Positions 6,117 to 24,595 are shown, counted from the stretch's first letter. The stretch: 38,179 nt of DNA from Methanomicrobiales archaeon (GCA_028678665.1 JAJRDA010000002.1:1-38179); one strand, 5' to 3'. Numbers and translations are program-made. Notes: generated by a model not told the origin, from the letters alone.

Positions 6117-6940
6117 GGCTGCTCCGAAAGAAATTCAATGATACGGTCAGTCTCCTCCAGGGCCCGGGGCGAGTACTCCCGGAACCGGGCAGCAGTCTCC
6201 CGGAAGAACTCCTCGAACGCGGCGGGGTCTGCCGACTCCACCCGCTCCCGGAGATCGCGGACCGCCTGCTCGAAGGCAGCCAGGGCGGGGCCGGTCTCCG
6301 GGTTTAACCGGAGGATGTCCGCGTAGAGGGCAGGGTCCTGGGAGAGGAGCCTCCCGACCAGATTAAGCTGGATGCGGTACACCGGGCTGGTCGCGGCCAG
6401 CACCTCACCGATATCGGTCCCCAGGGTCCGCATCGCCCCGGCCATGCAGAGGGTGGAGAAGTGGGAGATCCCCTGGATCACGGCCATCATCCGGTCATGG
6501 GCCTCCGGCGTGGTGACGGTGACCCGCGCCCCCTCGGTCCTGAAGGTGCGGTACAGCTGCTCCGCCGTCTCCTCCCGGCACCGGGCCGGGGTCGCGAGGA
6601 TGGTCTGGTTCCTGAGGTTTGCGACCGTCGGGCCGAACATGGGATGGAACCCGATCACCTCTGCACGGGATGCCAGCATCGCCTGCACCGGGGCCACCTT
6701 CAGGGACGTGAGGTCGCAGATCACCTGGTCCTTCCGGAGCAGGGGTGCCACCTCCCGGATCACCGGTACCGTGTCCCGGATGGGCACCGACACCATCACC
6801 AGGTCCGCCTGCTCTGCCAGGTCCCGGGCGGTGAGGGATGTGGATCTCCCGGAGACCCTCACCTCCCACCCGGCCCGGCCCAGTACCCCGGCAAAGAGGC
6901 TCCCCATCTTCCCGGTACCGCCGATGATCCCTGCCTTCAT
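6113..6940 (-). CDS. tyrA: Prephenate dehydrogenase
   Basis: MKAGIIGGTGKMGSLFAGVL is a Rossmann GxGxxG start. The ...FHPMFGP... region and C-terminal helical domain are typical of the TyrA family. Confidence 0.87.
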   Translation of the reverse strand: MKAGIIGGTGKMGSLFAGVLGRAGWEVRVSGRSTSLTARDLAEQADLVMVSVPIRDTVPVIREVAPLLRKDQVICDLTSLKVAPVQAMLASRAEVIGFHPMFGPTVANLRNQTILATPARCREETAEQLYRTFRTEGARVTVTTPEAHDRMMAVIQGISHFSTLCMAGAMRTLGTDIGEVLAATSPVYRIQLNLVGRLLSQDPALYADILRLNPETGPALAAFEQAVRDLRERVESADPAAFEEFFRETAARFREYSPRALEETDRIIEFLSEQP

Positions 6941-6943
6941 CCC

Positions 6944-7930
6944 TCACTTCTCCCTGATGGTCTCCTTCACCGCGGTGCCAAAGTGGCGGCCACCCTCGGC
7001 GGTGGCTCCCAGCACCCGGTCGCCGGCTTTCAGGGCCACCACCGAGACCGGTCTCCCGTCCTCGCCAATGAGCCGTACCGTCTCTGCGTTCTGGAGAACG
7101 AGCGTTGCCTTCACGTCCCCGGCCTCTGCTTCCACGAGGAGCAGCGGTCTCCGCTCAATCTTCACCCGGCCCACCACCGCGTCGGTGGAGGAGCCGGAGG
7201 AGGCCACGACGGCCACGTGATCCCCGGCCGCGAGCTCGGAGAGGTACGCCGTCTTCCCGTCCGGCTTCATCAGGTACGCGTGGACGGCGCCCGCGTTCAC
7301 CCGGAAGGGGCGGGGGGCCACGTAGGGGTTCTCGGCCGTCTCGGCCTGGACCAGCAGGAATGCCGACGAGGTGTCCCCGACGAGCATTCCCTGCCCCTCG
7401 GCCATCATGGAGCAGGTATCGACGCAGACCCGGTCCCCGATCCCGACCGGCCGGATGGAGGTGACCGTGAACGGGACCAGCTGCACCGCTCCCTCCGATC
7501 CCTTCACGAGGGCCCCGACCTTCCGGATTTCACCCGCATCCGTCGTGGAGAGGAGGACCCCGTGCACGCCCCGCTCCAGCACCCGGAGGGCCAGCTCTGC
7601 CTCCCCCGCGTTCCGGACACGGGCGATGATCCGGTCTGCCCGGGCCACCAGGTTCTCCAGCGGGATCACGGTCCAGTCAGTGGTGGAGACCACCACGTAC
7701 CCCTCCTTTGCCCTGCGGACCGCCTCGTCCTCGTCACCCCGGCCCCGGATCTGGACGTCGAAGACGTCCCGCCCGGGCACGAGGTCCCCGTCCGGGGCAA
7801 CCGTCCTGACACGGGCCAGCTCGCGCGCCCTGGTGGCCTGGTCCACGACCAGCACGTCGGCACCGCTCTCGAGGGCCGTCGTGGCCAGCTCCTTCTTCCA
7901 GGGGCGGACCTCCACCCAGAACTCCTTCAT
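6944..7930 (-). CDS. aroB': 3-dehydroquinate synthase II (archaeal type, uses ADH)
   Basis: [29 protein letters not shown]..., ~328 aa, resembles the MJ1249-type DHQ synthase II family. ATG 7930 overlaps the upstream stop as ATGA. Confidence 0.87.
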
Positions 7931-8712
7931 CCTGCCCGCTCCAGCGCCCGTGCCGGGTCCTCGTTCTCGTGGACCACCCGGCAGATCGCCTTCGTGAACG
8001 CGGTGGTGTTGTCCCGCTGGAAGGCGTTCCTGCCCATGCAGACACCGGCGGCCCCGGCCTTGATGGCGTCCCGGATCATCTTCAGCGCGTCCAGGTCCCC
8101 GCCCTTCTCCCCGCCGGCGACCATCACCGGCACCGAGCAGGCAGCGGTGATCTCCCGGAAGGATGCCACGTCACCGGTGTAGTTCGTCTTGATCATGTCA
8201 GCTCCCAGTTCCTCGGCCACGCGGACGCAGTGGCCCACCGCCTGGGGCGAGACCGGGTCGATCCCCTTGCCCCGCGGGTAGATCATGGCGAGGAGCGGGA
8301 TCCCCCACCGGGCGCAGGCCTTGGAGACCTGCCCCGCCGACTCGATCATGTGGGACTCGTTGGGGGCCCCCAGGTTCACGTGGATGGAGACGGCGTCTGC
8401 CCCCAGCACGATGGCCTCCTCCACGGTGCAGACCAGCACCTTGTCGTTGGGGTCCGGGTTCAGGCTGGTGGAGGCCGAGAGGTGGACGATGAGCCCGATG
8501 TCCCTCCCGTGCTTCCGGTGGCCGGTTTTCACCATCCCCTTGTGGAGTACAATCGCGTTGGCTCCCCCGTCCGATACCTCTCCTATCACTCGGGTCATGT
8601 CCATGAGCCCCTTGATCTGCCCCAGGGAGAACCCGTGGTCCATGGGGATGATCACCGCCCTTTTTGTGTTCCTGTCAATGATCCGTTCGATCCTGATGTC
8701 CTTTCCAATCAT
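7927..8712 (-). CDS. Class I aldolase (DeoC/FbaB) family protein; ADH synthase (AroA') or DKFP-synthase-like paralog
   Basis: IRIERIIDRNTKRAVIIPMDHG...GANAIVLHKG...IKTNYTGD...VMVAGG...GRNAFQ matches the MJ0400/MJ1585 family pattern. AAGGAG lies ~10 nt upstream of ATG 8712. Confidence 0.8.
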   Translation of the reverse strand: MIGKDIRIERIIDRNTKRAVIIPMDHGFSLGQIKGLMDMTRVIGEVSDGGANAIVLHKGMVKTGHRKHGRDIGLIVHLSASTSLNPDPNDKVLVCTVEEAIVLGADAVSIHVNLGAPNESHMIESAGQVSKACARWGIPLLAMIYPRGKGIDPVSPQAVGHCVRVAEELGADMIKTNYTGDVASFREITAACSVPVMVAGGEKGGDLDALKMIRDAIKAGAAGVCMGRNAFQRDNTTAFTKAICRVVHENEDPARALERAG

Positions 8713-8733
8713 GTCCTGATCACTCCTTGTCCT

Positions 8734-9525
8734 TCATACCTTAAGAATCTCCAGCGCTTCGTCTACAGTTCTCTTCTCATGCACGATGGCGGCTGCAGCC
8801 CGGACAAACCGGTCTGGCGCCTTATGCTGGAACGCGTTGCGGCCGATGGAGATGCCGGCCGCTCCACCCTCCATGGCACCGGCAATGAGGTCCAGGGTCG
8901 CCCGCTCGTCGGTCTTCGATCCCCCGGCCACGACGACAGGGACCGGGCAGCCCCGGGTCACTGTCCGGAAGCTGTCGGGATCCCCCGTGTACACGGTCTT
9001 CACGATGTCGGCACCCAGCTCCGCGGCCACGCGGGCGGCGAGAGCCACGTGCTCCACGTCGTTCTCTTTCCGGATCTTGGCCCCCCGGGGGTACATCATG
9101 GCCAGGAGCGGCATCCCCCACTCCATGCACTCCACCGCGGTGCGGCCCAGGTCCCGGAGCATGCGGGCCTCGGACTCCGCGCCGATGTTGATATGGAGGG
9201 AGACACCATCGGCCCCCATCTTCAGCGCGTTTGCCACCGTGTTGACGAGCACCTTTTCGTTGGGGTCAGGGGAGAGGGACGTGGAGCCCGACAGGTGCAG
9301 GATCAGCCCCACGTCAGGGCCCCGCTGCCGGTGCCCGTAGAGGGAGAGCCCCAGGTGCCCCAGCACCGCGTTGGCCCCGCCCCGGGCCACCAGTTCCACG
9401 GTCTCTCCCATGTCGATCAGGCCTGCCATCGGACCGTTCGTCACCCCGTGGTCCATGGGGACGATGATCGTCTTTCTCGTGTTCCGGTCCATGATACGTT
9501 CCAGACGGATCTGTTTTCCTCTCAT
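8734..9525 (-). CDS. Class I aldolase (DeoC/FbaB) family protein; second tandem paralog (ADH synthase or DKFP synthase)
   Basis: [32 protein letters not shown]...MMYPRG...VKTVYTGD...VVVAGG...GRNAFQ. Strong SD GGAGGAG lies 5-6 nt upstream of ATG 9525. The track start at 9555 is rejected. Confidence 0.8.
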
Positions 9526-9570
9526 GACATCTCCTCCCGGCCGATCAGATCCCATGATCTGACGGACGGG

Positions 9571-11482: not shown

Positions 11483-12922
11483 TCACTCCCAGTCCGGGAT
11501 GTTCTCCGGCAGGGTCAGGGGGAAGATGGCCGAGATATTGCCCGGGTGTGCCACGTACAGGGGTCCCCAGGAGGCGTTCCGGTCGTGCATCACCTTCAGG
11601 ATGCCGAGCATCCGGTCAAAGATCAGCGGGAGATCGGCGCCCTTCGCCACCGATGCGGTGACGGCGGCTGCGACGACGTGGGCGGCATAGATCCCCTTTG
11701 CGTAACGGGACGGGAGCGTCCCTGCCTGCTGCAGGAGTGTGCGCAGCTTCCCTGCGATCCGCTCATCCTTGTCCCTCCAGTCCTGGATGTGGCCCAGGGC
11801 GCGGAGTTCCAGCTGCTCCATCTTCGTCCGGGCCAGGATCTCTGCCACCACGTCAGCAGACCGTTTCGCATCATCGGATGGGATCACCGTCGTGCCCAGG
11901 CGGATGGTGGTGAGGTCCCGGTCCGCCTCCTTCTCGATGGCTGCCGCCCACTTCTTTGCGGCCGAGAAGGAGAGCCGCCGGATGACGGCCGCCGCCAGGT
12001 ACGCCCGGAGCAGGTCGGCCGGGTGGGGGTCCGAGAGGTGTCCGGTGCCGGAGAGGACGGGATCACCCCCGTAGGCATCCCGCAGGGCCCGGAAGTAGCC
12101 CACGAGACCGATGCCCGCGGCCGGCCCCATGTTCAGGATCCCCAGCACGTCGGAAGCGGTCTCATCGATCCGGGCAGACCAGTAGTCAGGGAGGATCTTC
12201 CCCAGTTTCTCCTTCGTGAGCGCTTCCCAGACCTTCGTGGCCATCTCTTCGGCAAGCCCCGAGTCGGCGTGGATGATGTCGTGCCCTGACGTCTCGTGGG
12301 CAATGGCGGCCCAGGCCAGGATACCGGCACGGGCGTTCGCCGGGGGCAGGTTCACGATGGCAGCGGCGACCCCGAACGAAGAAGTGGCATCCACCGGCCA
12401 GGTGTAGGGCCCGGCCTCCGGGTAGCCCCATTTCACGAGCGGGGGGATGACCCCTTTATCCGGAGGATTCACTTCTTTCCTGTCTTCGGCAGAGAGGAAC
12501 CCGTCGTAGAGGTCGCTCACCACCTCCTGGAACCCGTCCGTTGCCCGGTCCTCGTACCGCTCGCCGTTCTGCAGGATTGCCTGGGCAATATCGAGCATGA
12601 GACACGCCTCTCCCTCCCGCTCCGGGTCCCGTGAAAGGAGAGAGGCAAATCCTTTCTTGCCGAGCCGATCCAGTGCGGCACGGAACGGGGTGGAGACCTG
12701 GTCCCTGTACAGGGGAGGCAACCGCTCTTCAGCGGTCACCAGCCTCCGCCGGAGATCCGCGTAGTCGGTGGGCTCTGCAGGCCCCGTGTCAGTTGCCAGC
12801 GCAACCTGCTTTGCATCCCGGATGCAGGCTGAGAGGCCGGAGAGATCCGGCCCTTTTACCGCTGCCGCGGTCTCCCGTTCCGGCGGCTGTTCCTTCTGTG
12901 AGACACTCCTTCTCATCGCCAT
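11483..12922 (-). CDS. Hypothetical protein with HETSGH (HExxGH) motif, possible metallopeptidase-like
   Basis: ATG 12922 is preceded by GAGGTGAGAGGA. HETSGH is encoded at 12281-12298, with DETASD 40 residues later. No family recognised. Track ORF upstream of 12922 is rejected. Confidence 0.65.
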   Translation of the reverse strand: MAMRRSVSQKEQPPERETAAAVKGPDLSGLSACIRDAKQVALATDTGPAEPTDYADLRRRLVTAEERLPPLYRDQVSTPFRAALDRLGKKGFASLLSRDPEREGEACLMLDIAQAILQNGERYEDRATDGFQEVVSDLYDGFLSAEDRKEVNPPDKGVIPPLVKWGYPEAGPYTWPVDATSSFGVAAAIVNLPPANARAGILAWAAIAHETSGHDIIHADSGLAEEMATKVWEALTKEKLGKILPDYWSARIDETASDVLGILNMGPAAGIGLVGYFRALRDAYGGDPVLSGTGHLSDPHPADLLRAYLAAAVIRRLSFSAAKKWAAAIEKEADRDLTTIRLGTTVIPSDDAKRSADVVAEILARTKMEQLELRALGHIQDWRDKDERIAGKLRTLLQQAGTLPSRYAKGIYAAHVVAAAVTASVAKGADLPLIFDRMLGILKVMHDRNASWGPLYVAHPGNISAIFPLTLPENIPDWE

Positions 12923-13137
12923 TCCTCTCACCTCTGCCCGGACGGGCACGGCCCGTTTCAGGTAAAGCGGGAGATACGGGTCCGGAGGAGAAAGGGTTTC
13001 CGGGGGGGGGTCAAGGAAAAGTTCTTCCAGAGGTAGATACCGACAGGGCGGGACTATCTTCCTCAGGGAGGGCGACGGGAGGAGACAGAGCCCCCTCCCG
13101 GTCCCACCCCCACGAGAGGATAACCGCTCCACGCAGG

Positions 13138-13145
13138 AAAAAAAA
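13138..13145 (-). terminator. oligo-T (T8) intrinsic terminator after the VIT1 gene
   Basis: A8 on the plus strand (T8 in the transcript sense) starts 15 nt past the stop at 13160-13162. Confidence 0.5.
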
Positions 13146-13159
13146 CTTCTTTATTCCTC

Positions 13160-14041
13160 TCAGATCTCCACGCCCAGGAAGGTCCGGACCAGGATCCCCA
13201 TCAGGAAGGAGAGGGCGGCCACCCCCAGGCTGATCCCTGCCATCTCGGTGAAGCGCTTCCGGAACGGCAGGTCCCGGGCAACCGAGATGTAGTACGAGAA
13301 GAAGAGGATGACGAGGAGTGCGGTGACGAGAGTGATGGCCAGGGAGAGGTACAGGTTTCCGAGGATCAAAAACGGTGCGATGAGGGCGGCGACCGTGATC
13401 AGGTATGCCACACCCGTGTACATCGCGGCCCGGAACGGGTCCCTCCCGTCCTCCTCAGACTTGGTGGAGAGGTACTCTGCGGCAGCCATGGAGAAGGCGG
13501 CGGCGATCCCCGTGATGAGCCCGGCGACCGCGATGATCCGGGCATTCTGGAGAGCAAAGGTGAACCCTGCCAGGGCGCCGGTCAGCTCCACCAGTGCGTC
13601 GTTCAGCCCCAGGACTACTGATCCTGTGTAGCGCAACCGCTCCTCATCGATGAGGCCGATCAGCTCCCGCTCGTGGTCCCGCTCGTCCTGGAGAATCCGC
13701 TCAAGGTCCGGTATCGTTACCGACAGGTCCCGGTACACCTGCTGGATCCTCCGCTCCCCACGCTCCAGCTGCTTGATCCCGAATGTGATCCCCAGGATCC
13801 GGCAGGTCATGAGGAAAAACGTCACCCGGATCCGATCGGGCGCTATCTCCTTCTTGGTCAGCTGTTTCCAGTACCCATAGTGCTGGTACTCGACGGCGGC
13901 TATCTGTTCCAGCACCTGCCGGTTCCGGGGGTCCGCGGTGATCCGGGCCAGGCCGGTGTAAATGGCATGTTCGGTGATCTCCTCCTTCTGGGCGTCTGCC
14001 GCGGCGGCGAGGATCACCGGGTCCGTGATCTCCGGAGGCAT
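13160..14041 (-). CDS. Ferritin-like (rubrerythrin-type) domain fused to VIT1/CCC1 iron/manganese transporter
   Basis: N-terminal four-helix-type repeats (EITEHAIY...; ...ERDHERELIG). C-terminal part has VLGLNDALVELTGALAG plus several hydrophobic helices typical of VIT1. Confidence 0.82.
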   Translation of the reverse strand: MPPEITDPVILAAAADAQKEEITEHAIYTGLARITADPRNRQVLEQIAAVEYQHYGYWKQLTKKEIAPDRIRVTFFLMTCRILGITFGIKQLERGERRIQQVYRDLSVTIPDLERILQDERDHERELIGLIDEERLRYTGSVVLGLNDALVELTGALAGFTFALQNARIIAVAGLITGIAAAFSMAAAEYLSTKSEEDGRDPFRAAMYTGVAYLITVAALIAPFLILGNLYLSLAITLVTALLVILFFSYYISVARDLPFRKRFTEMAGISLGVAALSFLMGILVRTFLGVEI

Positions 14042-14069
14042 GATGGAGGAGGGGTGAGGAGAGATGTGA

Positions 14070-14077
14070 GATAAAGG
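14070..14077 (-). promoter_or_regulatory. TATA-like box (CCTTTATC) for the VIT1 gene, leaderless spacing
   Basis: 28 nt upstream of ATG 14041, with no SD in between. Confidence 0.45.
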
Positions 14078-14330
14078 TATGCTCGCCGCTGCGGGCTGCG
14101 GGTGGGTAGGCCACGGGGGAGGTGTCTCGCCCGGAGGTTATCTCCAGGAAGGTGCGAACCAGGTGAAGGGCCTCCCGCCGGTCTTCCCGATGGGTGCAGC
14201 CGGTTGTTCCGGAACCTTTCTCATCCGGCCGCGGAGCCGGCGGCTCCCGCAGGAGAAACCGGCCGAAATCCGCCGAGAACCGGTGCGATAAAGTGAAGTA
14301 TTCCGAAGATGTATAATTGGCTGGGAACGT

Positions 14331-14930
14331 ATGAAGAACCACCCGGTCCAGGACATGATGCTTCTGATGGCCTCCAAGATCCGGGCCATCGCGAACACCA
14401 TCTCCGACGAAGAGGTGGAATCTTTTCTCAGAGAGCTCCTGGCGGCCACGCGGATCTATGTGATGGGTGCCGGCCGGTCCGGCCTGGTGGCCAAGGCCTT
14501 TGCCATGCGCCTGATGCACCTGGGGCTCCAGTCCTACGTCGTGGGAGAGACGATCACCCCTGCGCTGGGGAAGGGGGACGTCATCGTGGTCTTCTCGGGA
14601 TCGGGCGAGACCAAGACGATGGCGGACATCGCCGAAACGGCGAAGGGGATCGGCGCCAGGATCTGCCTGATCACGTCGCGGAAGGACTCCCGGATTGGCC
14701 GGATCGCGGACTGCATCGTGGTCGTGGAAAGCCAGCGGGACGCGGTCCGGGACGACGCGGCCGAGTTCGAGATCCGGCAGATGATGGGGGAGCACAAGTC
14801 CTTTGCCCCCCTGGGCACGCTCTTCGAGACCACGGCCATGATCTTCGCCGACGCGGTCATCTCGCGGCTGATGGAGATCACGAAGACAGACGTGGAACAG
14901 CTCCGGGGCAGGCACGTGAACATCGAATGA
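14331..14930 (+). CDS. hxlB: 6-phospho-3-hexuloisomerase (SIS domain)
   Basis: ...RIYVMGAGRSGLVAKAFAMRLMHLGLQSYVVGETITP...VVFSGSGET... closely follows the PHI family pattern, and length is ~199 aa. Confidence 0.83.
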   Translation: MKNHPVQDMMLLMASKIRAIANTISDEEVESFLRELLAATRIYVMGAGRSGLVAKAFAMRLMHLGLQSYVVGETITPALGKGDVIVVFSGSGETKTMADIAETAKGIGARICLITSRKDSRIGRIADCIVVVESQRDAVRDDAAEFEIRQMMGEHKSFAPLGTLFETTAMIFADAVISRLMEITKTDVEQLRGRHVNIE

Positions 14931-14957
14931 GAATGGGATGAAGAGGAGGTACCTTAC

Positions 14958-16058
14958 GTGAGGTTTTCGGAACGGATCCAGGGCATCGAGGGTTCGGGGA
15001 TTCGAAAAATTTTTGAGGCGGCAGGGCCGGGAGCCGTGAACCTGGGCCTGGGGCAGCCGGACTTTGATACCCCGGCCCACATCAAGGAGGCCGCCATCGC
15101 GGCACTCCGAGAGGGAAAGACCGGCTACACGCAGAACGCCGGTATCCCTGAGCTCCGGACCGCCATCTGCGACAAGCTCCGGAGGGAAAACGGCCTTTCG
15201 TACCGGCCCGAAGAGGTGATCGTGACAGCGGGTGGCAGCGAGGCGCTCCACCTGCTGATGCAGGTCCTGGTCCGGGACGGGGACCGGGTGCTGGTCCCGG
15301 ACCCGGGCTTTGTCTCCTACGCGGCGCTGGCCACGGTAGCCGGCGGCGTCCCGGTGGGGATGCCCCCGGATTCCTCCATGCACACCGACGTGGAGAAGGC
15401 GAAGGAGCTCCTGGACGGCGCTGCCGTGATGGTGCTGAACAGCCCCTCGAACCCTACGGGTGCTGTCGAGCCGGAGGAGTCCGTCCGGGCGCTGGTCCAG
15501 TACGCCGCCGACCGGGGTGTTACCGTCATCTCCGACGAGGTGTACGAGCACCTGATCTACGGCCGTCGCCACGTGCCGGCCGCCCAATTCGGCGAGAACG
15601 TCATCACCGTGAACGCCACCAGCAAGACCTATGCCATGACCGGCTGGCGGGTCGGATTCTTTGCCGGCCCCCAGGAAGTGGTGGACCAGGCCGTGAAACT
15701 GCACCAGTACTGCCAGGCCTGCGCCACCTCCATCGCCCAGTACGCGGCCGTTGCTGCCTATACCGGCGACCAGTCCTCGGTGGCAGAGATGCGGAAGGAG
15801 TACCAGGCCCGCCGGGACCTGATGTACGAGGGGTTCAGCCGCATGGGGATCTACTTCCCGATCCCGGAGGGGGCATTCTATATGTTTGTGCCCTTCGGCA
15901 GGGAGCTCACCGGTAAGATCCTCTCGAAGGGCGTCGTGATCGTGCCCGGCGACGCCTTCGGGAAGAACGCGCCGGGTTATGCCCGGCTCTGCTATGCCGT
16001 GAGCCGGGAGACCATCGAGGAAGCCATCCACCGGATCGGGAAGGCGGTGGCGGAGTGA
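14958..16058 (+). CDS. Class I/II PLP-dependent aminotransferase (aspartate/aromatic type)
   Basis: GTG start at 14958 after GAGGAGGT. ...NLGLGQPDFDTP...GYTQNAGIPELR...SPSNPTG...NATSKTYAMTGWRVGF... (the PLP Lys lies in SKTYAM). Confidence 0.9.
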   Translation: MRFSERIQGIEGSGIRKIFEAAGPGAVNLGLGQPDFDTPAHIKEAAIAALREGKTGYTQNAGIPELRTAICDKLRRENGLSYRPEEVIVTAGGSEALHLLMQVLVRDGDRVLVPDPGFVSYAALATVAGGVPVGMPPDSSMHTDVEKAKELLDGAAVMVLNSPSNPTGAVEPEESVRALVQYAADRGVTVISDEVYEHLIYGRRHVPAAQFGENVITVNATSKTYAMTGWRVGFFAGPQEVVDQAVKLHQYCQACATSIAQYAAVAAYTGDQSSVAEMRKEYQARRDLMYEGFSRMGIYFPIPEGAFYMFVPFGRELTGKILSKGVVIVPGDAFGKNAPGYARLCYAVSRETIEEAIHRIGKAVAE

Positions 16059-17098
16059 CGGGCGAAAAGCAGCTCCTCCGGAAGTTCGCGGACGCCCACG
16101 GGGTCTCGGGGAGCGAGGGGAACGTCCACGACGTGATCCGGGCCGAGATCCGGGATCACGTGGACGAGGTCCGGACCGACCGGATGGGCAACCTGGTGGC
16201 CGTGAAGAACGGCGGCGACCTCTCGGTGATGCTGGCCGCCCACACCGACGAGATAGGCCTGATGGTGAACTACATCGATGAGAAGGGGTTCTCTCGGTTC
16301 GTCACCTTCGGCGGGTGGTATGCCCCGACGCTCCTCGCCCAGCGGGTGATCCTCCATGGAACCAAGGGGCTGATCCACGGTGTGGTAGGGGCGAAGCCGC
16401 CCCATGCCATGTCCGAGGAGGAACGCAAGAAAGGGGTGAAGACCGAGGAGATGTTCATCGACGTGGGGGCCTCCAGTGCGAAGGAGGTGGGGCGGCTGGG
16501 CATCGAGATCGGGACCCCGGTCACCATCGACCGGGAGCTGGCGGACCTGGGCTACCGGCGGGTGACGGGCAAAGCCTTCGACAACCGGGTCGGGTGCGTC
16601 CTCCTGGCCCGGACCCTCCAGCAGATGGACTCGCCCCATACCGTCTATGCCGTCTTCACGGCACAGGAGGAGGTGGGGGCCAAGGGCGCCCGGACCAGCG
16701 CCTTTGAGCTGGAGCCGGACTGTGCCATCGCAACGGATGTCACCTTCCCGGGGGACCACCCGGAGATCAAGAAGGAGGACTCCTCTCTCGTGATGGGGAA
16801 GGGGCCCGCCATCACCGTCTCGGATGCCAGCGGCCGGGGTCTCATCGCCGACCGGCGGATGGTGGCCTGGCTCCGGTCCGTTGCCGAAAAAAAGAAGATC
16901 CCCTACCAGCTGAAGGTAGGCCACGGCGGCACCACCGATGCGAGCGCCATCCACCTGGTCCGGGCCGGCATCCCCTCGACGGTGATCAGTGTCCCGGTGC
17001 GGTACATCCACTCGCCGGTCGAAGTGGTGGACCTGCGGGACATCGAGATGTCGGTGAAGCTCCTGGTGGAGGCGCTCCGGATCAGGCCGGACCTCTGA
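16055..17098 (+). CDS. M42 family aminopeptidase (TET/FrvX type)
   Basis: ...HGVSGSE...AHTDEIGLMV...KAFDNRVG...FTAQEEVG...GGTTDA... . GTG 16055 overlaps the aminotransferase stop as GTGA. Confidence 0.87.
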   Translation: MTGEKQLLRKFADAHGVSGSEGNVHDVIRAEIRDHVDEVRTDRMGNLVAVKNGGDLSVMLAAHTDEIGLMVNYIDEKGFSRFVTFGGWYAPTLLAQRVILHGTKGLIHGVVGAKPPHAMSEEERKKGVKTEEMFIDVGASSAKEVGRLGIEIGTPVTIDRELADLGYRRVTGKAFDNRVGCVLLARTLQQMDSPHTVYAVFTAQEEVGAKGARTSAFELEPDCAIATDVTFPGDHPEIKKEDSSLVMGKGPAITVSDASGRGLIADRRMVAWLRSVAEKKKIPYQLKVGHGGTTDASAIHLVRAGIPSTVISVPVRYIHSPVEVVDLRDIEMSVKLLVEALRIRPDL

Positions 17099-17302
17099 TC
17101 TCCCTCTATCCCGTTTCAGATCGATCCTGAGGTAAACCGAGCATCCCTTCTCTCTGTGATTGGGAAACTCGGCAGGAGTTGGATAGGGGGGTAGGACCGG
17201 AAGGAGGCTCAGCCCTCTCCCGCCGCGTTCCCCGGACAGGTATGCCCTTCCGGCATGGGGGGACCTTGCCCCACCAGCAAGGCTCATGCCCCTTCACACC
17301 CC

Positions 17303-18982
17303 ATGATGATGCGAAGATCCATGGTCACCATCATCCTGCTGGACGACCGTCCTGGTTTTTTCGAGATATTCCGAACGATAGCCACAGGCGCTGGCGATCT
17401 CCCGGTGGTGTCAGCCGGAACCGATGCGGAGGCCCTGGCCCGTCTCTCGGAGGGCGACGCGGATCTGGTCCTGGGGCGGTTTGGCAGTGGTGAGACCGGA
17501 GGGATCCGGCTGCTGGAGGCTATCCGGTCCTCGGGATCGGGAATCCCCGTCATCCTGGTTGCCGACCGGGCCGACCGGGATGCGCTGGGCCATGCCTACC
17601 TTCACGGGGCAGACCTGGTCCTGGACCGGCTGCCCGATTCCCTGGAGTCCTGGACCAGTCTCACCGGGACACTCCGTGCCCTGGCCGGCCGGTGGCGCCG
17701 TGAAGAGAACCTGCGCCAGGAGAACGGGATCATGGAGGCGGTGCTGAATGCAACCCCCCTGGCAGTCTGTGTCATCAGGAACCACGTCGTTGTCTGGGCG
17801 AACCGCACACTCCAGTCCATGCTGGGGTATCAGGAGGGGGATCTGATCGGCAGGGATCCGGTTGAGTTCATGGCCGGAGAAAAGGAGCACCGGCGGATCG
17901 ATGACGGGCTTTTCGGGACCCGGGATGAGTTCGGCTGGGGCTCCACCGAGACGCAGGTGATCCGGAGGGACGGGTCCCTGCTCAGCTGCCACCTCCGATC
18001 CCGGCCGGTTGACTCCGAGGACCCCTCCCAGGGCCACATCGTGGTGGGCCAGGACATGACCGAGTACCACCGGGCCCGGGACCTGCTGCGCAGGAGCGAG
18101 CTGCGCTACCAGGACCTGATCGACAACGCCCACAGCATCATCCTCCGGGTGGACCCCCGGGGGATCGTCCGGTTCATCAACCGGTACGGGGAGACGTTCT
18201 TCGGCTATTCCGGGGACGAGATCGTGGGGAAGCCCCTGCTGGGCACGATCCTCCCCGATCGCTCACGGACCGGACGGGACCTGGCCGCCATGGTGAGGGA
18301 GGTGATGCAGAAACCCGAGGACTTCGAGGTGAACGTGAACGAGAACATGAAGAAGTCCGGCGAACGGGTCTGGATCGCCTGGACCAACAAGGCGATCCGG
18401 GACGAAAAGGGGCGTCTGGTGGAGATGCTCTCCATAGGAAACGACATTACCGACCGGAAGCTGGACGTCAAGGAGGTGAGTATCACCATCGCACCCTGGA
18501 AGAAAGCCCTCATCGAGGACACCGATATCCAGGAGCCGGTCTTTGACGCGGTCTACGAGATCGCCGCCGAGATATCCCGTGAAGGACGGGAGGGAAAGCC
18601 GGTGGGGACCACCTTCGTCCTCGGCGATACGCCCCGCGTGCTGGCCCGTTCCCGGCAGTTGATCCTGAATCCCTTCGAAGGGCACCCGAGGGAGGCCCGG
18701 AGGATCACACGGCCTGAGCTCCGGGAGACGATCAAGGAGCTGGCCCAGCTGGACGGTGCCTTCGTGGTGAGCGGGGATGGGGTGGTCTGTGCCGGGGGCA
18801 GGTACATCACGATCGACACGAGTGCTGCCGCGGTGCCAAAGGGCCTCGGGACCCGCCATGCCTCCGTGGCCGGGATCACCCAGGAGACGCGGTCCGTGGG
18901 GATCGTGGTCTCCCAGAGCGGTGGCCGGATCTCCCTCTTCAAGGACGGGCGGGTGGTGAAGGTGATCACCTCGGCGGACTGA
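17303..18982 (+). CDS. Signal-sensor protein: degenerate receiver domain + two PAS domains + C-terminal DisA_N/DAC (diadenylate cyclase) fold
   Basis: REC-like MVTIILLDD...DLVLGRF...IPVILVADR. Two PAS blocks (...NATPLAVCVI...; ...DNAHSIILRVD...GNDITDRK). C-terminus GTTFVLG...LDGAFVV...GLGTRHASVAGIT...IVVSQSGGRISLF aligns to CdaA/DisA DAC motifs. Start is uncertain: ATGs at 17255, 17303 and 17321. Confidence 0.8.
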   Translation: MMMRRSMVTIILLDDRPGFFEIFRTIATGAGDLPVVSAGTDAEALARLSEGDADLVLGRFGSGETGGIRLLEAIRSSGSGIPVILVADRADRDALGHAYLHGADLVLDRLPDSLESWTSLTGTLRALAGRWRREENLRQENGIMEAVLNATPLAVCVIRNHVVVWANRTLQSMLGYQEGDLIGRDPVEFMAGEKEHRRIDDGLFGTRDEFGWGSTETQVIRRDGSLLSCHLRSRPVDSEDPSQGHIVVGQDMTEYHRARDLLRRSELRYQDLIDNAHSIILRVDPRGIVRFINRYGETFFGYSGDEIVGKPLLGTILPDRSRTGRDLAAMVREVMQKPEDFEVNVNENMKKSGERVWIAWTNKAIRDEKGRLVEMLSIGNDITDRKLDVKEVSITIAPWKKALIEDTDIQEPVFDAVYEIAAEISREGREGKPVGTTFVLGDTPRVLARSRQLILNPFEGHPREARRITRPELRETIKELAQLDGAFVVSGDGVVCAGGRYITIDTSAAAVPKGLGTRHASVAGITQETRSVGIVVSQSGGRISLFKDGRVVKVITSAD

Positions 18983-19065
18983 AGGGGTACCAGGGATCTC
19001 CGTTTCAACGGTGAGTCCGTGTGGTATCAGAATCCTTATCACACACTCCCCTCCACACCTCCTCC

Positions 19066-19614
19066 ATGGACGAGACCTCCCGGAAGGTAGTGCACCTCCT
19101 CTTCGGGCTGGGTATTGCCGCCGCCATCGCCGTCATCGACCGGCCGGTGATGCTCGCCCTCATGGTGATCGCGCTCTTCTTCGGGTTCCTCCTCTCCGAT
19201 GCCCTCTCCCGCGGCCACCACATCGAGGGGATATCGCCGCTCATGAAGGTCCTGGAACGGGAGAGTGTCCTCCCCGGGAAAGGGGCGCTCCTCTTCGTCT
19301 TCTCAGCGTTCGTCTGCCTCTTCTTCTTCGAGGCAAACGTGGTGATCCCGGCGGTGGTTGCCCTCGCAGTCCTGGACGGTGTGGCGACGCCGGTCGGGAT
19401 CCGGTACGGCAACCACCGGATCTACAATGGCAAATCCGTGGAAGGGACCGGGGCAGGGATTGCTGCAGCCTTCCTTGCGCTCATGTTCCTCCTCCCGCCC
19501 GTGCATGCCCTTGCCGCCGCTGTACTGGCAGGAGTGATCGAGCTCGTCGCCCCCGTGGATGACAACCTGCTGATCCCGCCCTGTATCTGCGTGCTCCTGA
19601 CGGTGCTGGGGTGA
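19066..19614 (+). CDS. Polytopic membrane protein, dolichol kinase / CdsA-like (CTP-dependent polyprenol kinase family) candidate
   Basis: About 6 hydrophobic helices and a NGKSVEGTGAG motif resembling the KxxEG motif of this family. Start chosen at MDETSRKVVHLLFG; the track ORF starts at 19021. Confidence 0.5.
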   Translation: MDETSRKVVHLLFGLGIAAAIAVIDRPVMLALMVIALFFGFLLSDALSRGHHIEGISPLMKVLERESVLPGKGALLFVFSAFVCLFFFEANVVIPAVVALAVLDGVATPVGIRYGNHRIYNGKSVEGTGAGIAAAFLALMFLLPPVHALAAAVLAGVIELVAPVDDNLLIPPCICVLLTVLG

Positions 19615-19799
19615 GAAGGGGTGAAAAGGGCTTGGTGGTCTATCCTCTCGGGGGGTGGGACCGATAGGGGGCCGGCCACGGCGGGGGTGTGAACCGGGGC
19701 AGGGTACTGACCGGAGGATGAAAAACAGTCATCCGGGGGAATCAACGTGATCAGGAAAACGAAAGGGAAAAAGGAGAGGGATTTCCCCCGTATCCGCCT

Positions 19800-22610
19800 C
19801 TAGGTGAACCAGACCTTCACCATCATGTCGGAGACCGCATTCGGGTAGAAATTGGTCCCCCGGTAGTGGATGCCGTGAGGGTAGGGATTCCCGGAATTCA
19901 GCGGGACATAGTAGTAGTTCTTCAGGTCGTATGTCCCGGTGTCCAGTACCACATACAGCGTGCTCCCCGCGGTAAGGATCCCCTCCTGGTCAATGGGCAC
20001 CTCCACCCATGAGGGACTCGCAGAGCTGGTCGAGGTGACCATGGCAGGGGTGATGGTGGCCGTGGCCAGGTCAGGCCCTTTCAGGGTTGTCCTCAGGCGG
20101 ACCGTGATGCTCAGGGATGGGGTTCCCTTGCGGGCCAGTCCGATGGCGATCCGGTCGATTCCGGTACCGGCTGCCTTAATTGTCTGGGCTTGTTTGATGT
20201 AGGAGCTGCTGTACCCCAGGTAGGAAGAGGTGGTGGCGGTCTCCGTGGTCGTGACCAGCCCGGGCTCCGGAGGGGGAGTGGGCTCCGGGGTGGGTGTGGG
20301 GGTTGGTTCCGGCGGGGGTGGAGGGGGTGGGGGTGGGGGAGTCGTGGAGAACCGGACCTGGATTTCCGTGTCCCCGGCCGGAACGGTAAGGGTAAGGATC
20401 CTGCTGGAACTGTTCCAGACGAACCCGGTGCCGGAGACCGGTGCCCCGTTCACCCGCACCTCCCCGGGTTCCTCAGAGGGGAAGGACACGGAACTCGGGG
20501 ACGATGCCTGGATCGTCCCGTCAATGCCGTCGGTCGGGAACTGGAAGGCCACGGAGACCGGCTTCGTGGAGGTGACCTGCACCTTTCCTGCTGCCCTGAG
20601 GGAGGTCCCATCCTCCAGGGTGAACCCGCTGAGCCGACCATCCTGTTTCGAGACAAGGACCATCCTGCCATCGGTACTGATATCAACGTAGCGGATGCTG
20701 GCACCCGTGGTGCTGAAGAGGAGGGTATCATCCCACGCGTCCTTCGACACGGTCACCCCGTCAAAGGAGGTCCCGCTGATATCGGTTACCCGGGGGGCTG
20801 TCTCGCTGCTCCCCAGCGGGTACAGGACCGCAAGGAACCGGGTGCCCGTCGATTTCGTATACGTGGCCGCCCGGACGTAGGAGGTGGCCTGGTCGCTTCC
20901 GCCAATGGAGGTAGGCTTTCCCGTGAGCACGGTGAAACGCAGATCATCGGGGCTCATCACTTTCGCATACAGGCGGGCCGTCGGCCGGGTGATGGAGATG
21001 GTACCGGTGCCGAAGGTGTTCGTCCTCACGGAGCCGGTTCCCAGGCCGTGGAGCAGGAAGTCAAACTCGACAGCCCTTGTGGCCGCCAGGTCATCGTATA
21101 CGATGAGGTAGCCCGGGGCATCGTGTTTCACAAAGACCAGGTCCCGGGTGAACTTGGAGAGCTTCCCCTTGTACACCGATGCTGCCGAGCCCTGGGTCTG
21201 GTCACAGAACGATGAGGAGAGGAACCGGGTGATCAGCGAGGAACCTTCGGGCGGATGGATCACCTGGCTCTGGGTATCCTTATCCAGCATGATCGTATTC
21301 TGGCCCAGAGTGGAGCGATACCAGGTTTCGTAATATGAATCGTATCCCTTCGACGAGATGCCCGGGAGGATCACCAGCCGTTCGCCCAGCGCGTCGAGGA
21401 AGAAGCTGTTCTGCTCGGGCCGGTCGTTGCCCGGGTTGAAGGGACCGGACTTGAATCCCACCAGGGTATCCTCGGTATTCCAGCCGGTCCGCATGGCCAC
21501 CCAGCCGGCGTCCCGGAACCAGCGGGAGAGGGGGAGGGTGCCCGGCGACTGCTCAGGGAGGGTTCCGTCGGTGAAGAGGATATCGCCGATGGGGTCAGGA
21601 TATCGCAGGGGAGCGTTCCGGTAGTACCACTGGGCATAGGGGTTGCCGGTCCGGGAGGCAAGGGCTGCGGCAGGGGCGCTCCGGAAGGCATCGCTGAAGT
21701 CCTCATCCCCGAATGCGCTGGACGCCCCCTTGCGGTCGGGAGGGAGGAAATAGACCAGAAACTCGGGTGATTTGCTGAATTTCTGATGCCGGAAGAGATC
21801 CTCGCCGGTGGCGCGCCGGAGGGCCTCCGCGTAATAGATTGCCCCGCTGCCCCCGGCATCATTCGCGAGGCCGAAAGAGAGGTAGGCGATCCCCTCGGTC
21901 CAGGCACCATCGCGGTCAAACCGGTTGAAATATTCCTGCATCAATGTGTCGTGGACGATACTGGCGGCGGAATTCACCGTGGGGTTGCCGGGCAGATCGT
22001 CTTTCAGTACCATGGCAACGAGCCCGACGCCTCCCTGCGCCAGGGCGATACGGTTGGTGTTGAAGTCACGGGATTCCATCTCGGTACCGTGCTGCGCGAT
22101 CAGCGGTTCCAGGGACTTCGCGACCATGGCCTGCTGCACCGTGGCCCGCTCCTGCTCGGAGAGAAGCGGGTAAATCCAGTCGTAGGTCTCTGCGATGGAC
22201 CCCTGGAGTGTACCGGACATGTAGCTCACCTGCTGCCCATTGGCTATCCGGTCCGCATCCTGCCAGTAAGGCCATGTACAGGCCCTGAGCAGGTACCCCT
22301 TTGCCCGGAGGCCATACGTTTGATCGCCGTTCACCGCATACACGAACGCATTCGTGCGCAGCGCCCTCGCCGCTTCCCCCAGGTCCTGCTGGGACAGCGA
22401 GGGACCATTCGGGAATAGAGTCTCCTGCGCCAGCTGCTGCACACCCGCAAACCACGAGCGGTACGGTTCAGCGGCCACCTTCGCCCCCAACCCTGCCACG
22501 TCGGCAGACGTGAAATAGAGCCGGGGGTGAGCGGCACTGGCTGCCCCGGCCAGGAGCGGGAGTAGGATCAGGACCAGAAGCACTGCTACCGCGTAAAATC
22601 GTTTCGTCAT
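19800..22610 (-). CDS. Large secreted heparinase II/III-like (alginate-lyase-fold) protein with Pro/Thr linker and unknown C-terminal domain
   Basis: Signal peptide MTKRFYAVAVLLVLILLPLLAGAASA. The N-terminal ~650 aa resemble (alpha/alpha)-toroid + beta-sandwich heparinase II/III family proteins. Linker with a run of ~10 Pro then EPTPTPTPEPTPPPEP is encoded at about 20262-20339. SD GGGGAGGGTG precedes ATG 22610. Confidence 0.72.
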   Translation of the reverse strand: MTKRFYAVAVLLVLILLPLLAGAASAAHPRLYFTSADVAGLGAKVAAEPYRSWFAGVQQLAQETLFPNGPSLSQQDLGEAARALRTNAFVYAVNGDQTYGLRAKGYLLRACTWPYWQDADRIANGQQVSYMSGTLQGSIAETYDWIYPLLSEQERATVQQAMVAKSLEPLIAQHGTEMESRDFNTNRIALAQGGVGLVAMVLKDDLPGNPTVNSAASIVHDTLMQEYFNRFDRDGAWTEGIAYLSFGLANDAGGSGAIYYAEALRRATGEDLFRHQKFSKSPEFLVYFLPPDRKGASSAFGDEDFSDAFRSAPAAALASRTGNPYAQWYYRNAPLRYPDPIGDILFTDGTLPEQSPGTLPLSRWFRDAGWVAMRTGWNTEDTLVGFKSGPFNPGNDRPEQNSFFLDALGERLVILPGISSKGYDSYYETWYRSTLGQNTIMLDKDTQSQVIHPPEGSSLITRFLSSSFCDQTQGSAASVYKGKLSKFTRDLVFVKHDAPGYLIVYDDLAATRAVEFDFLLHGLGTGSVRTNTFGTGTISITRPTARLYAKVMSPDDLRFTVLTGKPTSIGGSDQATSYVRAATYTKSTGTRFLAVLYPLGSSETAPRVTDISGTSFDGVTVSKDAWDDTLLFSTTGASIRYVDISTDGRMVLVSKQDGRLSGFTLEDGTSLRAAGKVQVTSTKPVSVAFQFPTDGIDGTIQASSPSSVSFPSEEPGEVRVNGAPVSGTGFVWNSSSRILTLTVPAGDTEIQVRFSTTPPPPPPPPPPEPTPTPTPEPTPPPEPGLVTTTETATTSSYLGYSSSYIKQAQTIKAAGTGIDRIAIGLARKGTPSLSITVRLRTTLKGPDLATATITPAMVTSTSSASPSWVEVPIDQEGILTAGSTLYVVLDTGTYDLKNYYYVPLNSGNPYPHGIHYRGTNFYPNAVSDMMVKVWFT

Positions 22611-22656
22611 CGACACCCTCCCCTGAAAGCTGACGAGGGGATTATCGGGGGAAGAG

Positions 22657-22664
22657 TTTATAAA
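22657..22664 (-). promoter_or_regulatory. TATA-like box (TTTATAAA) upstream of the heparinase-like gene
   Basis: AT-rich palindromic element ~46 nt upstream of ATG 22610, followed by an SD-containing leader. Confidence 0.4.
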
Positions 22665-22787
22665 CATATGCCCGGAAAAGACAATGCTTTTTCATTAACC
22701 TTGTACCGTTCTGTCCTCAGGATTCGGCGTTCGGGTTCTCAGTTCAAAGGCGATGTTCCGGGCGGTGAGCGTCTTCTGCACCGTCCC

Positions 22788-23633
22788 TCATGGAGGAGTC
22801 GTGGGGGTGGCGGGCACCGAGGTCGCCGGCACCATCGTCACCCCGGTGGCAATGACCATGATGGACTGGTACGCCAGGGGGACAACGGGCGTATGGTCGT
22901 TGTTCACGAGCTGCACCGAGAGGGTATGCATGCCGGGCGGGATATCGGGGAAGGTGAAGCCGGTGGCAGCCACGTGCCCCCACGGGACACCCGGGCTGGT
23001 GGGGATGGCAGGTGTCCCGGGGACGAAGGGTACGGTTCCGATGTCCAGGTAATAGTGCACGTGCCCCTCCCCGGCCACGTTCGCCTGCCCCTGCTTCTCC
23101 ACGATCCGGAAATTGTCCACCTGGACGGTGACCGGAACATCTCCCGCAGCGATCGTGGCTTCGTCCCGGGGTGAGAGGAAGGTGACCATCGGGACGGGCG
23201 GGGCGGTCACCGTGACCGTCACAGACCGGTACACGGGGGGTATTACCGGCGTCTGGTCGTTGTTCACGAGCTGCACGGTGAAGGTGTGCGTCCCGGGGGG
23301 AACATCAGTGAAGGTGTATTCTGTTCCTGCCACGTGGGCCCACCGGGTATCCGGTGCCGACGGGATTGCCGGCGATCCTGGCGTGGAAGGAACCGTTCCC
23401 GCGTCCAGGTAGACGTGGACATGCCCCTCGCCGGCCGCATTCGCCTGGCCCAGTTTATCCGCGATCCGGAAGTTGCCTGCTCGGAGGGTGACCGTGACAT
23501 CCCCTGCCGGGACCGAGGCTCCCTCCTGAGGCGAGAGGATATTCAGGGTCGGGCCCGGTGAAGCGCAGCCAGCGAACGCTGCCAGCACCGCCAGCGCAAG
23601 GAGGAGGGCAGGGATCCTGAGACCCGTATCCAT
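22788..23633 (-). CDS. Lipoprotein with two tandem ~120-aa domains carrying a GEGHVH motif (DUF4399-like)
   Basis: MDTGLRIPALLLALAVLAAFAGC is a signal peptide plus lipobox. Two repeats each contain NFRI..K.GQAN.AGEGHVH.YLD...QLVNND.TPV. Track ORF upstream of 23633 is rejected. Confidence 0.8.
   Translation of the reverse strand: MDTGLRIPALLLALAVLAAFAGCASPGPTLNILSPQEGASVPAGDVTVTLRAGNFRIADKLGQANAAGEGHVHVYLDAGTVPSTPGSPAIPSAPDTRWAHVAGTEYTFTDVPPGTHTFTVQLVNNDQTPVIPPVYRSVTVTVTAPPVPMVTFLSPRDEATIAAGDVPVTVQVDNFRIVEKQGQANVAGEGHVHYYLDIGTVPFVPGTPAIPTSPGVPWGHVAATGFTFPDIPPGMHTLSVQLVNNDHTPVVPLAYQSIMVIATGVTMVPATSVPATPTTPP
22830..23549 (-). repeat. Intragenic tandem duplication, 2 x 360 bp
   Basis: Residues 29-148 and 149-268 of the lipoprotein align position for position. 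The duplication is also visible as near-identical off-frame ORFs 22753..23052 and 23113..23412, offset by 360 nt. Confidence 0.85.
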
Positions 23634-23660
23634 GGGAGGAAGGTAGGACGATCGTTCTCC

Positions 23661-23666
23661 ATATAC
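23661..23666 (-). promoter_or_regulatory. TATA-like element (GTATATGG) for the repeat lipoprotein, leaderless spacing
   Basis: 27 nt upstream of ATG 23633, with no SD. Confidence 0.35.
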
Positions 23667-23842
23667 GTTCCTGTCATTTCCAGAAAGTGACCCGAACCCG
23701 GGGAATGCGCACCCCCGGCGTCCCCCAAGGGGGGAGCGGCCGGGCTGCCGGCAGGCCCCGGAAGGGTGAACCCGAGGGAGAGGTGGTTGTCCTGAAAAGG
23801 GGGAGGGGAACCCCCCATGAATCCCGGGCCGCGGGGGGCCGG

Positions 23843-24595
23843 TCATCCCCTCCTCTCCCGCTCGAGGGTCCGGTGGATAACCAGGCCTGATACCACCCAG
23901 GCAAGGGGAACGATCAGGATCACGAGGACGACAAGGGTGAACGAACCCGTCACCATGAAGTTGAAGATGCCGTGGAGGAGAACGGCAAAGAGGAAGCCGG
24001 CCGCCACAACGGCCCGCCCCCTGGCGGGGGGCATGAATTTCGCCCATCCCAGGGCCGCTCTCCAGCTGAGGGAGATGAGGGCATGAGCGGGAACCGAGAG
24101 GAATGCCCGCACCGCGGCAACGCCCAGTGCCAGCGGAACGGACGTGAGGGCCGATGTCCCCACGTACAGGACGTTTTCCAGCGTGGCAAACCCGAGGGCT
24201 GCGGCAACGGCGTAGATGATCCCGTCCATGGGCTCGTCAAATTCAGGGCTGTCATAGACAAAACCCCTCACGACCCCGAACTTGGCGAACTCCTCGATCA
24301 GGGGCCCGGCAGCCACGGTGAGCAGGAACGCGGGGACCACGTACGAGGCGAGCAGCTCCAGGAATGCTGCCGGGATCACGACGAGGCCTCCGAGGAGAAA
24401 GATGCGAATCACCGCGGCGGGGGGCTCCGGCTCGTACCGATCCTTCAGGTAGAAGTAGAACATCCAGAAGATGCCGGGCGCCACCGCCAGGGGAAGGATG
24501 AGGAGGGGATCCACGGGGAGATCTTTTCCCTTCAGGGGATAAAGCCGGCAGCAGCAGGCCTGGATCCGGTGGCAGGCCAGGACGGCCTGGCGCAC
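23843..24595 (-). CDS. prsW: PrsW-family intramembrane protease
   Basis: ...FWMFYFYLKDRYEPEP..., EEFAKF and HGIFNF motifs across multiple TM helices. The true start may be GTG 24514 (VDPLLILPL...). Confidence 0.72.
   Translation of the reverse strand: MRQAVLACHRIQACCCRLYPLKGKDLPVDPLLILPLAVAPGIFWMFYFYLKDRYEPEPPAAVIRIFLLGGLVVIPAAFLELLASYVVPAFLLTVAAGPLIEEFAKFGVVRGFVYDSPEFDEPMDGIIYAVAAALGFATLENVLYVGTSALTSVPLALGVAAVRAFLSVPAHALISLSWRAALGWAKFMPPARGRAVVAAGFLFAVLLHGIFNFMVTGSFTLVVLVILIVPLAWVVSGLVIHRTLERERRG

Follow-up and report, generated by a model that had tools for sequence, protein, structure and literature searches.

Does a protein whose C-terminal domain resembles a diadenylate cyclase (DAC), but whose copy of the bacterial RHR signature reads RHA, still make cyclic di-AMP (c-di-AMP), and what would set its activity when the rest of the protein looks like a sensor? 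The question arises from a gene in a 38,179-nucleotide stretch of DNA from a Methanomicrobiales archaeon (GCA_028678665.1, JAJRDA010000002.1:1-38179), which was analysed at its full length and is called the window below. An earlier note on this DNA had read the gene product as a receiver-like, PAS, PAS and DAC protein, and this reading was borne out by Pfam and NCBIfam domain calls and by an AlphaFold2 (AF2) model. Sequence comparison and modelling together suggest that the protein quite probably synthesises c-di-AMP under PAS control, with a receiver that acts independently of phosphorylation. The best explanation of the evidence is that it would be a soluble, cytoplasmic member of a Methanomicrobiales-specific sensor-DAC family.

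The open reading frame (ORF) lies on the + strand, ends with a stop codon at 18980-18982, and its translation agrees with that of the earlier note. The frame is open from an ATG at 17255 (575 amino acids [aa]), with further possible starts at 17303 (559 aa) and 17321. The last of these, M7, is most likely the true start because most homologues begin at the equivalent position and because an identical public protein has been called at 553 aa; the coding sequence of the sensor diadenylate cyclase is therefore given here as 17321-18982 (+). Public proteins with 100% identity are 553 aa long in NCBI/ENA and 559 aa long in a JGI call (start 17303), and the window's own protein bears the public name "PAS domain S-box protein." Residue numbers in this text count from the Met at 17303 (559 aa), so that 17321 is M7, except where the 553-aa numbering is named. 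The Pfam search gives the domain order as a CheY-like domain, then a pair of PAS domains and the DAC domain at the C terminus, and the full-length AF2 model (mean predicted local distance difference test [pLDDT], 84.5; predicted template modelling score [pTM], 0.45) contains, in order, a receiver fold, a long helix, PAS1, PAS2, a low-confidence linker and the DAC domain. Chance is excluded as the source of the domain and motif matches. No second DAC domain is present in the window, as a phmmer search with the DAC domain against its six-frame translation matched the domain itself alone.

The DAC (DisA_N) domain, of the archaeal DacZ type, spans residues 409-552 (18527-18958, +) and is recognised by PF02457, by NF041371, by the AF2 model and by Foldseek; it follows a flexible linker of low AF2 confidence at about residues 386-396 (380-390 in the 553-aa numbering). 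PF02457 scores 67.7 bits against a cut-off of 27 (E = 8.8e-19), aligning residues 426-550 with model positions 4-118 of 119. The top NCBIfam model is the archaeal DacZ equivalog NF041371, with 111.8-115.7 bits over its C-terminal half only (positions 122-262); the bacterial class models CdaA, CdaM, CdaS and DisA give 23-35 bits. When modelled alone, the domain reaches a pLDDT of 88.4 and a pTM of 0.88. When this model was compared with the PDB by Foldseek, each of the 50 best matches was a DisA, CdaA/DacA, CdaS or CdaM/DacM structure (probability, 1.00; TM score, 0.45-0.64), with no DacZ-type structure among these 50. The structure prediction proposed in the earlier note thus returned a DAC fold whose PDB matches are all diadenylate cyclases.

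A DAC-domain profile was searched over 1.84 billion representative proteins, and the 145 closest full domains were aligned. Five residues, D484, G485, G514, G516 and S537, are invariant in all 145. Two of these lie in the DGA motif (D484-G485-A486; 18752-18760, +). The site of the bacterial RHR, R518-H519-A520 (18854-18862, +), has R in 139/145 and H in 143/145 at its first two positions, and S537-Q-S-G-G (18911-18925, +), the counterpart of S-E-E-T-G in CdaA, includes the conserved Ser located after the RH helix. In the PDB sequence search, GLGTRHASVAGIT...VVSQSGGRISL was aligned with GTRHRAALGIS...VVSEETGGISL of Listeria CdaA, and both the G516-T517-R518-H519 segment and the downstream S537 are present in the window protein. 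Near S537 the preference of the DacZ model is for S-E-S, with scores of +2.4 bits for Q538E and -2.7 bits for S539E. The identification of the C-terminal region as a DAC domain with DGA and TRHA motifs, made in the earlier note, is therefore upheld, with PF02457 above its cut-off and the motifs in place.

Receiver-like and PAS domains

The N-terminal domain, residues 7-113 (17321-17641, +), is a CheY-like pseudo-receiver by its Response_reg match, its PDB matches to CheY and NtrC, and its predicted fold. The Response_reg score (PF00072) of 28.8 bits over residues 10-107 falls slightly under the cut-off of 30.2, and the PDB sequence matches have E values of 0.005-0.05. AF2 predicts a full (beta-alpha)5 CheY fold of five strands (E) and five helices (H) at a pLDDT of about 76-91, with the elements, in the 553-aa numbering, E4-7, H15-24, E29-32, H35-43, E49-53, H61-70, E77-80, H88-94, E99-101 and H108 onwards. 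The chemistry of the site is another matter. In an alignment of 104 family members to CheY, Spo0F and PhoB, ADLVLGR of the window protein stands opposite PDLVLLD, which places the phospho-acceptor position at R59 (17477-17479). The earlier note had put this position at the preceding Gly (G58, 17474-17476), which is one residue too early; its point that the acceptor is not Asp holds at either residue. Asp is absent from the acceptor column of all 104 members, which have H in 54, Y in 14, S in 11, R in 8 and E in 6, with Leu and Gly as well.

Could the domain nevertheless be a working receiver, phosphorylated at a non-canonical residue, so that the protein would be a two-component response regulator? 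Such a residue might be D54 at the start of beta3 or, in relatives, the His of the acceptor column, which occupies that column in just over half of the members. The preserved fold is consistent with this idea, as are D14, the first of the acidic residues and Asp in 78/104, and the T87 column, with Thr or Ser in 75/104. However, the acceptor of the window protein is Arg, and the column admits Tyr, Ser, Leu and Gly elsewhere in the family. At the metal site, the second acidic position is unconserved, and the Lys109 column is a gap in 76/104, Lys in 6/104 and Arg in the window protein. Together with the sub-threshold Response_reg score and a Pfam scan that found no histidine kinase among the 38 predicted window proteins, these data make a phosphorylated receiver very unlikely. 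A receiver independent of phosphorylation is preferred, and the term pseudo-receiver, which the earlier note had used, is justified by the lack of acceptor Asp in every member and of a Lys109 equivalent; as judged from the alignment, it holds for the whole family.

A long helix at about residues 114-150 (17642-17752, +) extends alpha5 of the receiver into PAS1 in the AF2 model (H108-144 in the 553-aa numbering; 37 residues; pLDDT, about 88-92), and is probably a dimerisation or signalling helix. It leads into PAS domain 1 (residues about 151-262; 17753-18088, +; Pfam and TIGR00229) and PAS domain 2 (residues about 263-392; 18089-18478, +; Pfam PAS 268-382 and PAS_9 278-384). The two PAS stretches pass the profile cut-offs, with 97.3 bits for PF00989 and 95.2 bits for TIGR00229. 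The top PDB sequence match of PAS1 is 3mqo, a LuxR-family PAS domain (E = 0.0028), and LOV domains match it weakly, at E values of at least 0.17. A LOV Cys motif of the NCRFLQ type was not found in the PAS domains; heme binding cannot be judged by sequence. By Foldseek the N-terminal half, with its tandem PAS, is most like the tandem PAS structures of FixL and DosP. This likeness reflects the tandem PAS layout and is not taken as a sign of heme.

Alanine at the third position of the RHR motif

The earlier note had taken the RHA of this protein as the loss of a catalytic Arg, and had raised the prospect of a degenerate or repurposed DAC fold. If so, the domain would be dead as a cyclase and would serve as an output or receptor domain that binds ATP or c-di-AMP. 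There is some evidence on this side. In a substitution probe, ten single changes at position 520 were scored against the curated class models, and A520R raised the scores of the bacterial models by 4.5 (CdaA), 4.2 (CdaM), 4.0 (CdaS) and 3.8 (DisA) bits, so that these models penalise Ala520 by about 4 bits. A triple mutant of Mycobacterium tuberculosis DisA with RHR changed to AAA is inactive (PMC3328451); however, three residues were changed together in that mutant, and the role of the third Arg is therefore not isolated.

Four independent tests agree on a different picture. Arg occupies position 520 in only 9 of the 145 closest representative domains, where A (42), S (26), V (15) and L (12) are more frequent and T (8), I (7) and Q (6) also occur, and the best 120 homologues of the full protein read TRHA in 111 cases, TRHN in 5 and TRHS in 3. 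All 520 variants except Gly score 115.5-115.9 bits with the DacZ model NF041371, and A520R changes the score by 0.0 bits. Control substitutions in the same model cost 3.8 (D484A), 3.2 (G485A), 3.7 (R518A) and 4.8 (H519A) bits, and therefore the probe does detect conserved columns. A tblastn search of plasmid records found dacZ in two Haladaptatus replicons (449.8 and 441.8 bits, over the equivalog cut-off), reading GTRHH. With this gene as the query, 120 haloarchaeal DacZ proteins were retrieved, of which 108 read RHM, 7 RHN, 3 RHH, 1 RHW and 1 RHL; none reads RHR. Among them is the DacZ of Haloferax volcanii (P0474, 269 aa), whose motif is GLGARHMAGG and which is an active and essential c-di-AMP synthase (PMC6741144; PMC10249747).

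Since position 520 varies within the clade, the active H. volcanii enzyme has Met and the DacZ model is indifferent to the residue, RHA is by these comparisons the normal state of the archaeal DacZ-type clade and not a lesion, the third Arg being conserved only in the bacterial DAC classes. Nor is an Arg supplied from a shifted position, which the earlier note had listed as a refuting outcome; the residue is simply unneeded in the archaeal clade. The window protein retains all clade-invariant residues, and D-G-A, R-H and S-x-S are invariant throughout its family, as expected of a working site. A dead DAC domain is thus highly improbable. RHR is a bacterial-class motif, unfit for calling archaeal DAC domains degenerate, and its removal as a criterion disposes of a false lead. 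That the enzyme is active but makes another product, either a cyclic or linear dinucleotide or pApA/ADP by a side reaction, is hardly to be expected, as nothing specific favours it beyond differences of the archaeal clade near the pocket (RHx, and S-Q-S-G-G vs S-E-E-T-G) which recur in H. volcanii DacZ (RHM, S-E-S-D-G), a c-di-AMP maker (PMC6741144).

Proposed mechanism, family and classification

For an active cyclase under PAS control, the following mechanism may be proposed. The C-terminal domain would be a catalytically competent DacZ-type DAC, two copies of which have to come face to face if two ATP are to be condensed into c-di-AMP. The pseudo-receiver, the long helix and the two PAS domains would probably form a parallel dimer. 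The PAS domains may sense a ligand or redox state, or the receiver may bind a partner protein; either event would alter how the DAC domains face one another and thereby set the rate of synthesis. We infer the activity, the dimer geometry and the direction of regulation; a requirement for Mn2+ may be expected by analogy with H. volcanii DacZ. The same logic, in which a PAS dimer governs an output that needs two catalytic domains, is found in PAS-GGDEF proteins, DosP and FixL-type sensors; the output of the window protein, however, is a DAC and not a GGDEF, EAL or kinase domain, and there is no evidence of heme or flavin in it.

Several observations weigh against this reading. The PDB sequence search with PAS1 found no cofactor signature of PAS domains, and there is no conserved gene neighbourhood that points to a pathway. 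The AF2 monomer, with its full-length pTM of 0.45, is uninformative on the dimer. At least one complete Methanomicrobiales MAG (metagenome-assembled genome) chromosome, OY969100.1, carries two DAC genes (L004 and L057).

The distribution of the family is consistent with a functional protein. A first homology search returned 1315 proteins at E < 1e-5. The best 120 of these come from MAGs of Methanomicrobiales, Methanoregulaceae and Methanomicrobiaceae; they are mostly 545-560 aa long with the same Pfam set, apart from some truncated fragments. Full-length homologues, over 100 in number, share 42-91% identity over 98-100% of the length and keep the invariant DAC residues, which we take as support in that the entire architecture is under strong purifying selection. 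A Methanoregula-seeded search found an orthologue in the cultured Methanoregula formicica under the UniRef name "Diadenylate cyclase." We also scanned one genome per GTDB species and obtained 581 DAC relatives; the results for its loci given here and below rest on the best 80 of the 581. Among these, REC-PAS-PAS-DAC is the common DAC form in Methanoregula and Methanolinea, whose loci hold PAS-PAS-DAC genes of about 555-570 aa, with a REC-like segment in 12 (phmmer E < 1e-3). The layout also occurs in an ADurb.Bin "Euryarchaeota archaeon," and the Methanoperedens members of this set are short DAC proteins of about 250 aa.

The closest characterised relative is DacZ of H. volcanii (HVO_1660; NF041371). 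The DAC domain of the window protein belongs to the same clade, with 35% identity over the domain, and the two share DGA, G-x-R-H followed by a non-Arg third residue, and S-x-S. They differ in the N-terminal half: DacZ (269 aa) has a PK_C-like DacZ_N domain (PF19294), whereas the window protein has a REC-like and two PAS domains. The 430-bit equivalog cut-off of NF041371 is missed by the window protein, which reaches about a quarter of it, whereas genuine DacZ proteins score 442-450 bits. PF19294 is listed for 120/120 haloarchaeal DacZ proteins and for none of the window protein's family. The remark in the earlier note that the N terminus is unlike that of DacZ/CdaZ was thus accurate, with a Response_reg-like and two PAS domains present and PF19294 absent. 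CdaZ/DacY of Methanocaldococcus jannaschii is active on heterologous expression and shares its branch of the DAC tree with DacZ (PMC6741144). It too is an archaeal DAC whose N-terminal domain, PK_C, is unlike that of the window protein. The bacterial CdaA, DisA, CdaS and CdaM share with it the fold and the DGA, G-T-R-H and Ser motifs, but their third Arg is conserved (RHR), CdaA has S-E-E, and they are regulated by other modules than the window protein, namely transmembrane helices, the HhH domain of DisA and the helices of CdaS.

The earlier note had set the architecture apart from the described archaeal DAC class. That it is undescribed cannot be maintained, given the number of full-length homologues and the classes of Methanomicrobiales DACs named in 2013. 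As listed by Braun et al. in 2019 (PMC6741144), the archaeal classes that Corrigan and Gruendling named in 2013, DacV to DacZ, include DacV of Methanosphaerula palustris (B8GHP5), DacW of Methanospirillum hungatei (Q2FM57) and DacX of Methanoregula boonei (A7I8S2), these three being cited there as Methanomicrobiales-specific. A later paper splits the DACs into 22 families (PMC12901056). DacV, DacW and DacX come from the same order as the window protein and are classes defined by architecture only. Because the Methanoregula and Methanolinea DACs share both the order and the layout, the window protein is most likely DacX-type, a class assignment drawn from organisms and layout. As to the other refuting outcome of the earlier note, a well-characterised cyclase class with this architecture, the class is a catalogued one but cannot be called well characterised. 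What is new here is one more member of the commonest Methanomicrobiales sensor-DAC family, in a class already catalogued.

Genomic context and other DAC architectures

A Pfam scan of the window proteins places the gene among housekeeping genes of an archaeal chromosome. Upstream are genes for an aminotransferase and an M42 peptidase, and PCNA, MoaA, the primase large subunit and the archaeal shikimate pathway are also encoded nearby. None of eight window genes (11483-24595) stands beside the homologues, as judged by tblastn against the 80 related loci, which gave one unrelated aminotransferase match; neighbours of the homologues are kept only within sub-clades. As the neighbourhood is unconserved, no functional inference is drawn from it. 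A gene for a DEAD-box RNA helicase precedes the DAC gene on the same strand in 13 Methanolinea-type loci, at a distance of 67-141 bp; this helicase is absent from the window, where the M42 peptidase is upstream. Directly downstream of the cyclase gene, 19021-19614 (+) encodes a multi-pass membrane protein of 197 aa with no Pfam match even at E = 0.1, as is also true of a 549-aa ORF at 11483-13132 (-). The 955-aa product of 19800-22667 (-) joins a heparinase II/III-like domain and DUF4962 to a Pro/Thr-rich linker; its C-terminal part matches no family. It is a polysaccharide-lyase-like surface protein, which is unusual for a methanogen. An aromatic amino acid cluster at 5328-9555 (-) comprises prephenate dehydratase-ACT, prephenate dehydrogenase, 3-dehydroquinate synthase II and two DeoC-family aldolases; this archaeal-type cluster is ordinary and confirms a methanogen-type chromosome.

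The relatives revealed other DAC architectures. In Methanomicrobiales MAGs, a TrkH-type K+ transporter (PF02386, 148.7 bits) is fused to a DacZ-type DAC in proteins of 733-741 aa, with Pfam-identified examples at 296-2521 of L001 (JAJRDF010000200.1) and 1277-3478 of L002 (JAJRCY010000125.1). Within the set of best loci from GTDB species representatives, these fused DAC domains are the closest to that of the window protein, with 68-71% identity. The joining of a K+ transporter to the synthase of a messenger that controls potassium uptake is noteworthy. Pfam also confirmed PKD repeats with a DAC domain in L057 and TPR repeats with a DAC domain in L065 (Methanospirillum hungatei). Five further loci (L041, L051, L061, L069 and L075), L069 being from Methanoculleus palmolei (CP137641.1), resemble L057 by eye, and a signal peptide and a single transmembrane (TM) helix precede the DAC domain in the PKD and TPR types, again by eye. 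All seven of these DACs have RH followed by a non-Arg residue. On OY969100.1, L004 is of the PAS type, with an ORF called short, possibly through a frameshift in a long-read assembly, and L057 is PKD-TM-DAC; with two DAC genes on one chromosome, more than one cyclase can be present in such genomes. A full dacZ lies on each of two Haladaptatus megaplasmids (540 and 600 kb), at 1120-1926 of L081 (NZ_CP085330.1) and 1114-1920 of L082 (NZ_CP085338.1), with the motif RHH as against the RHM typical of chromosomal haloarchaeal DacZ; the plasmid gene is possibly a second copy of a gene essential in H. volcanii.

It is conceivable, if on balance doubtful, that the REC-like/PAS/PAS cyclase is the principal c-di-AMP synthase of Methanoregulaceae, the PAS domains sensing an intracellular cue (redox, O2 or a metabolite) that sets the level of its product and is passed on through a phosphorylation-independent receiver. 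If this were true, c-di-AMP, an "essential poison," would be under a PAS cue in these organisms, as opposed to the osmotic and membrane cues that apply elsewhere, and the protein would be the first DAC of an archaeon whose sensory input can be defined. The DacZ-type cyclases of Methanomicrobiales, carried on sensor modules as varied as REC-PAS-PAS, PKD-TM, TPR-TM and TrkH, could reveal how c-di-AMP is controlled in methanogens.

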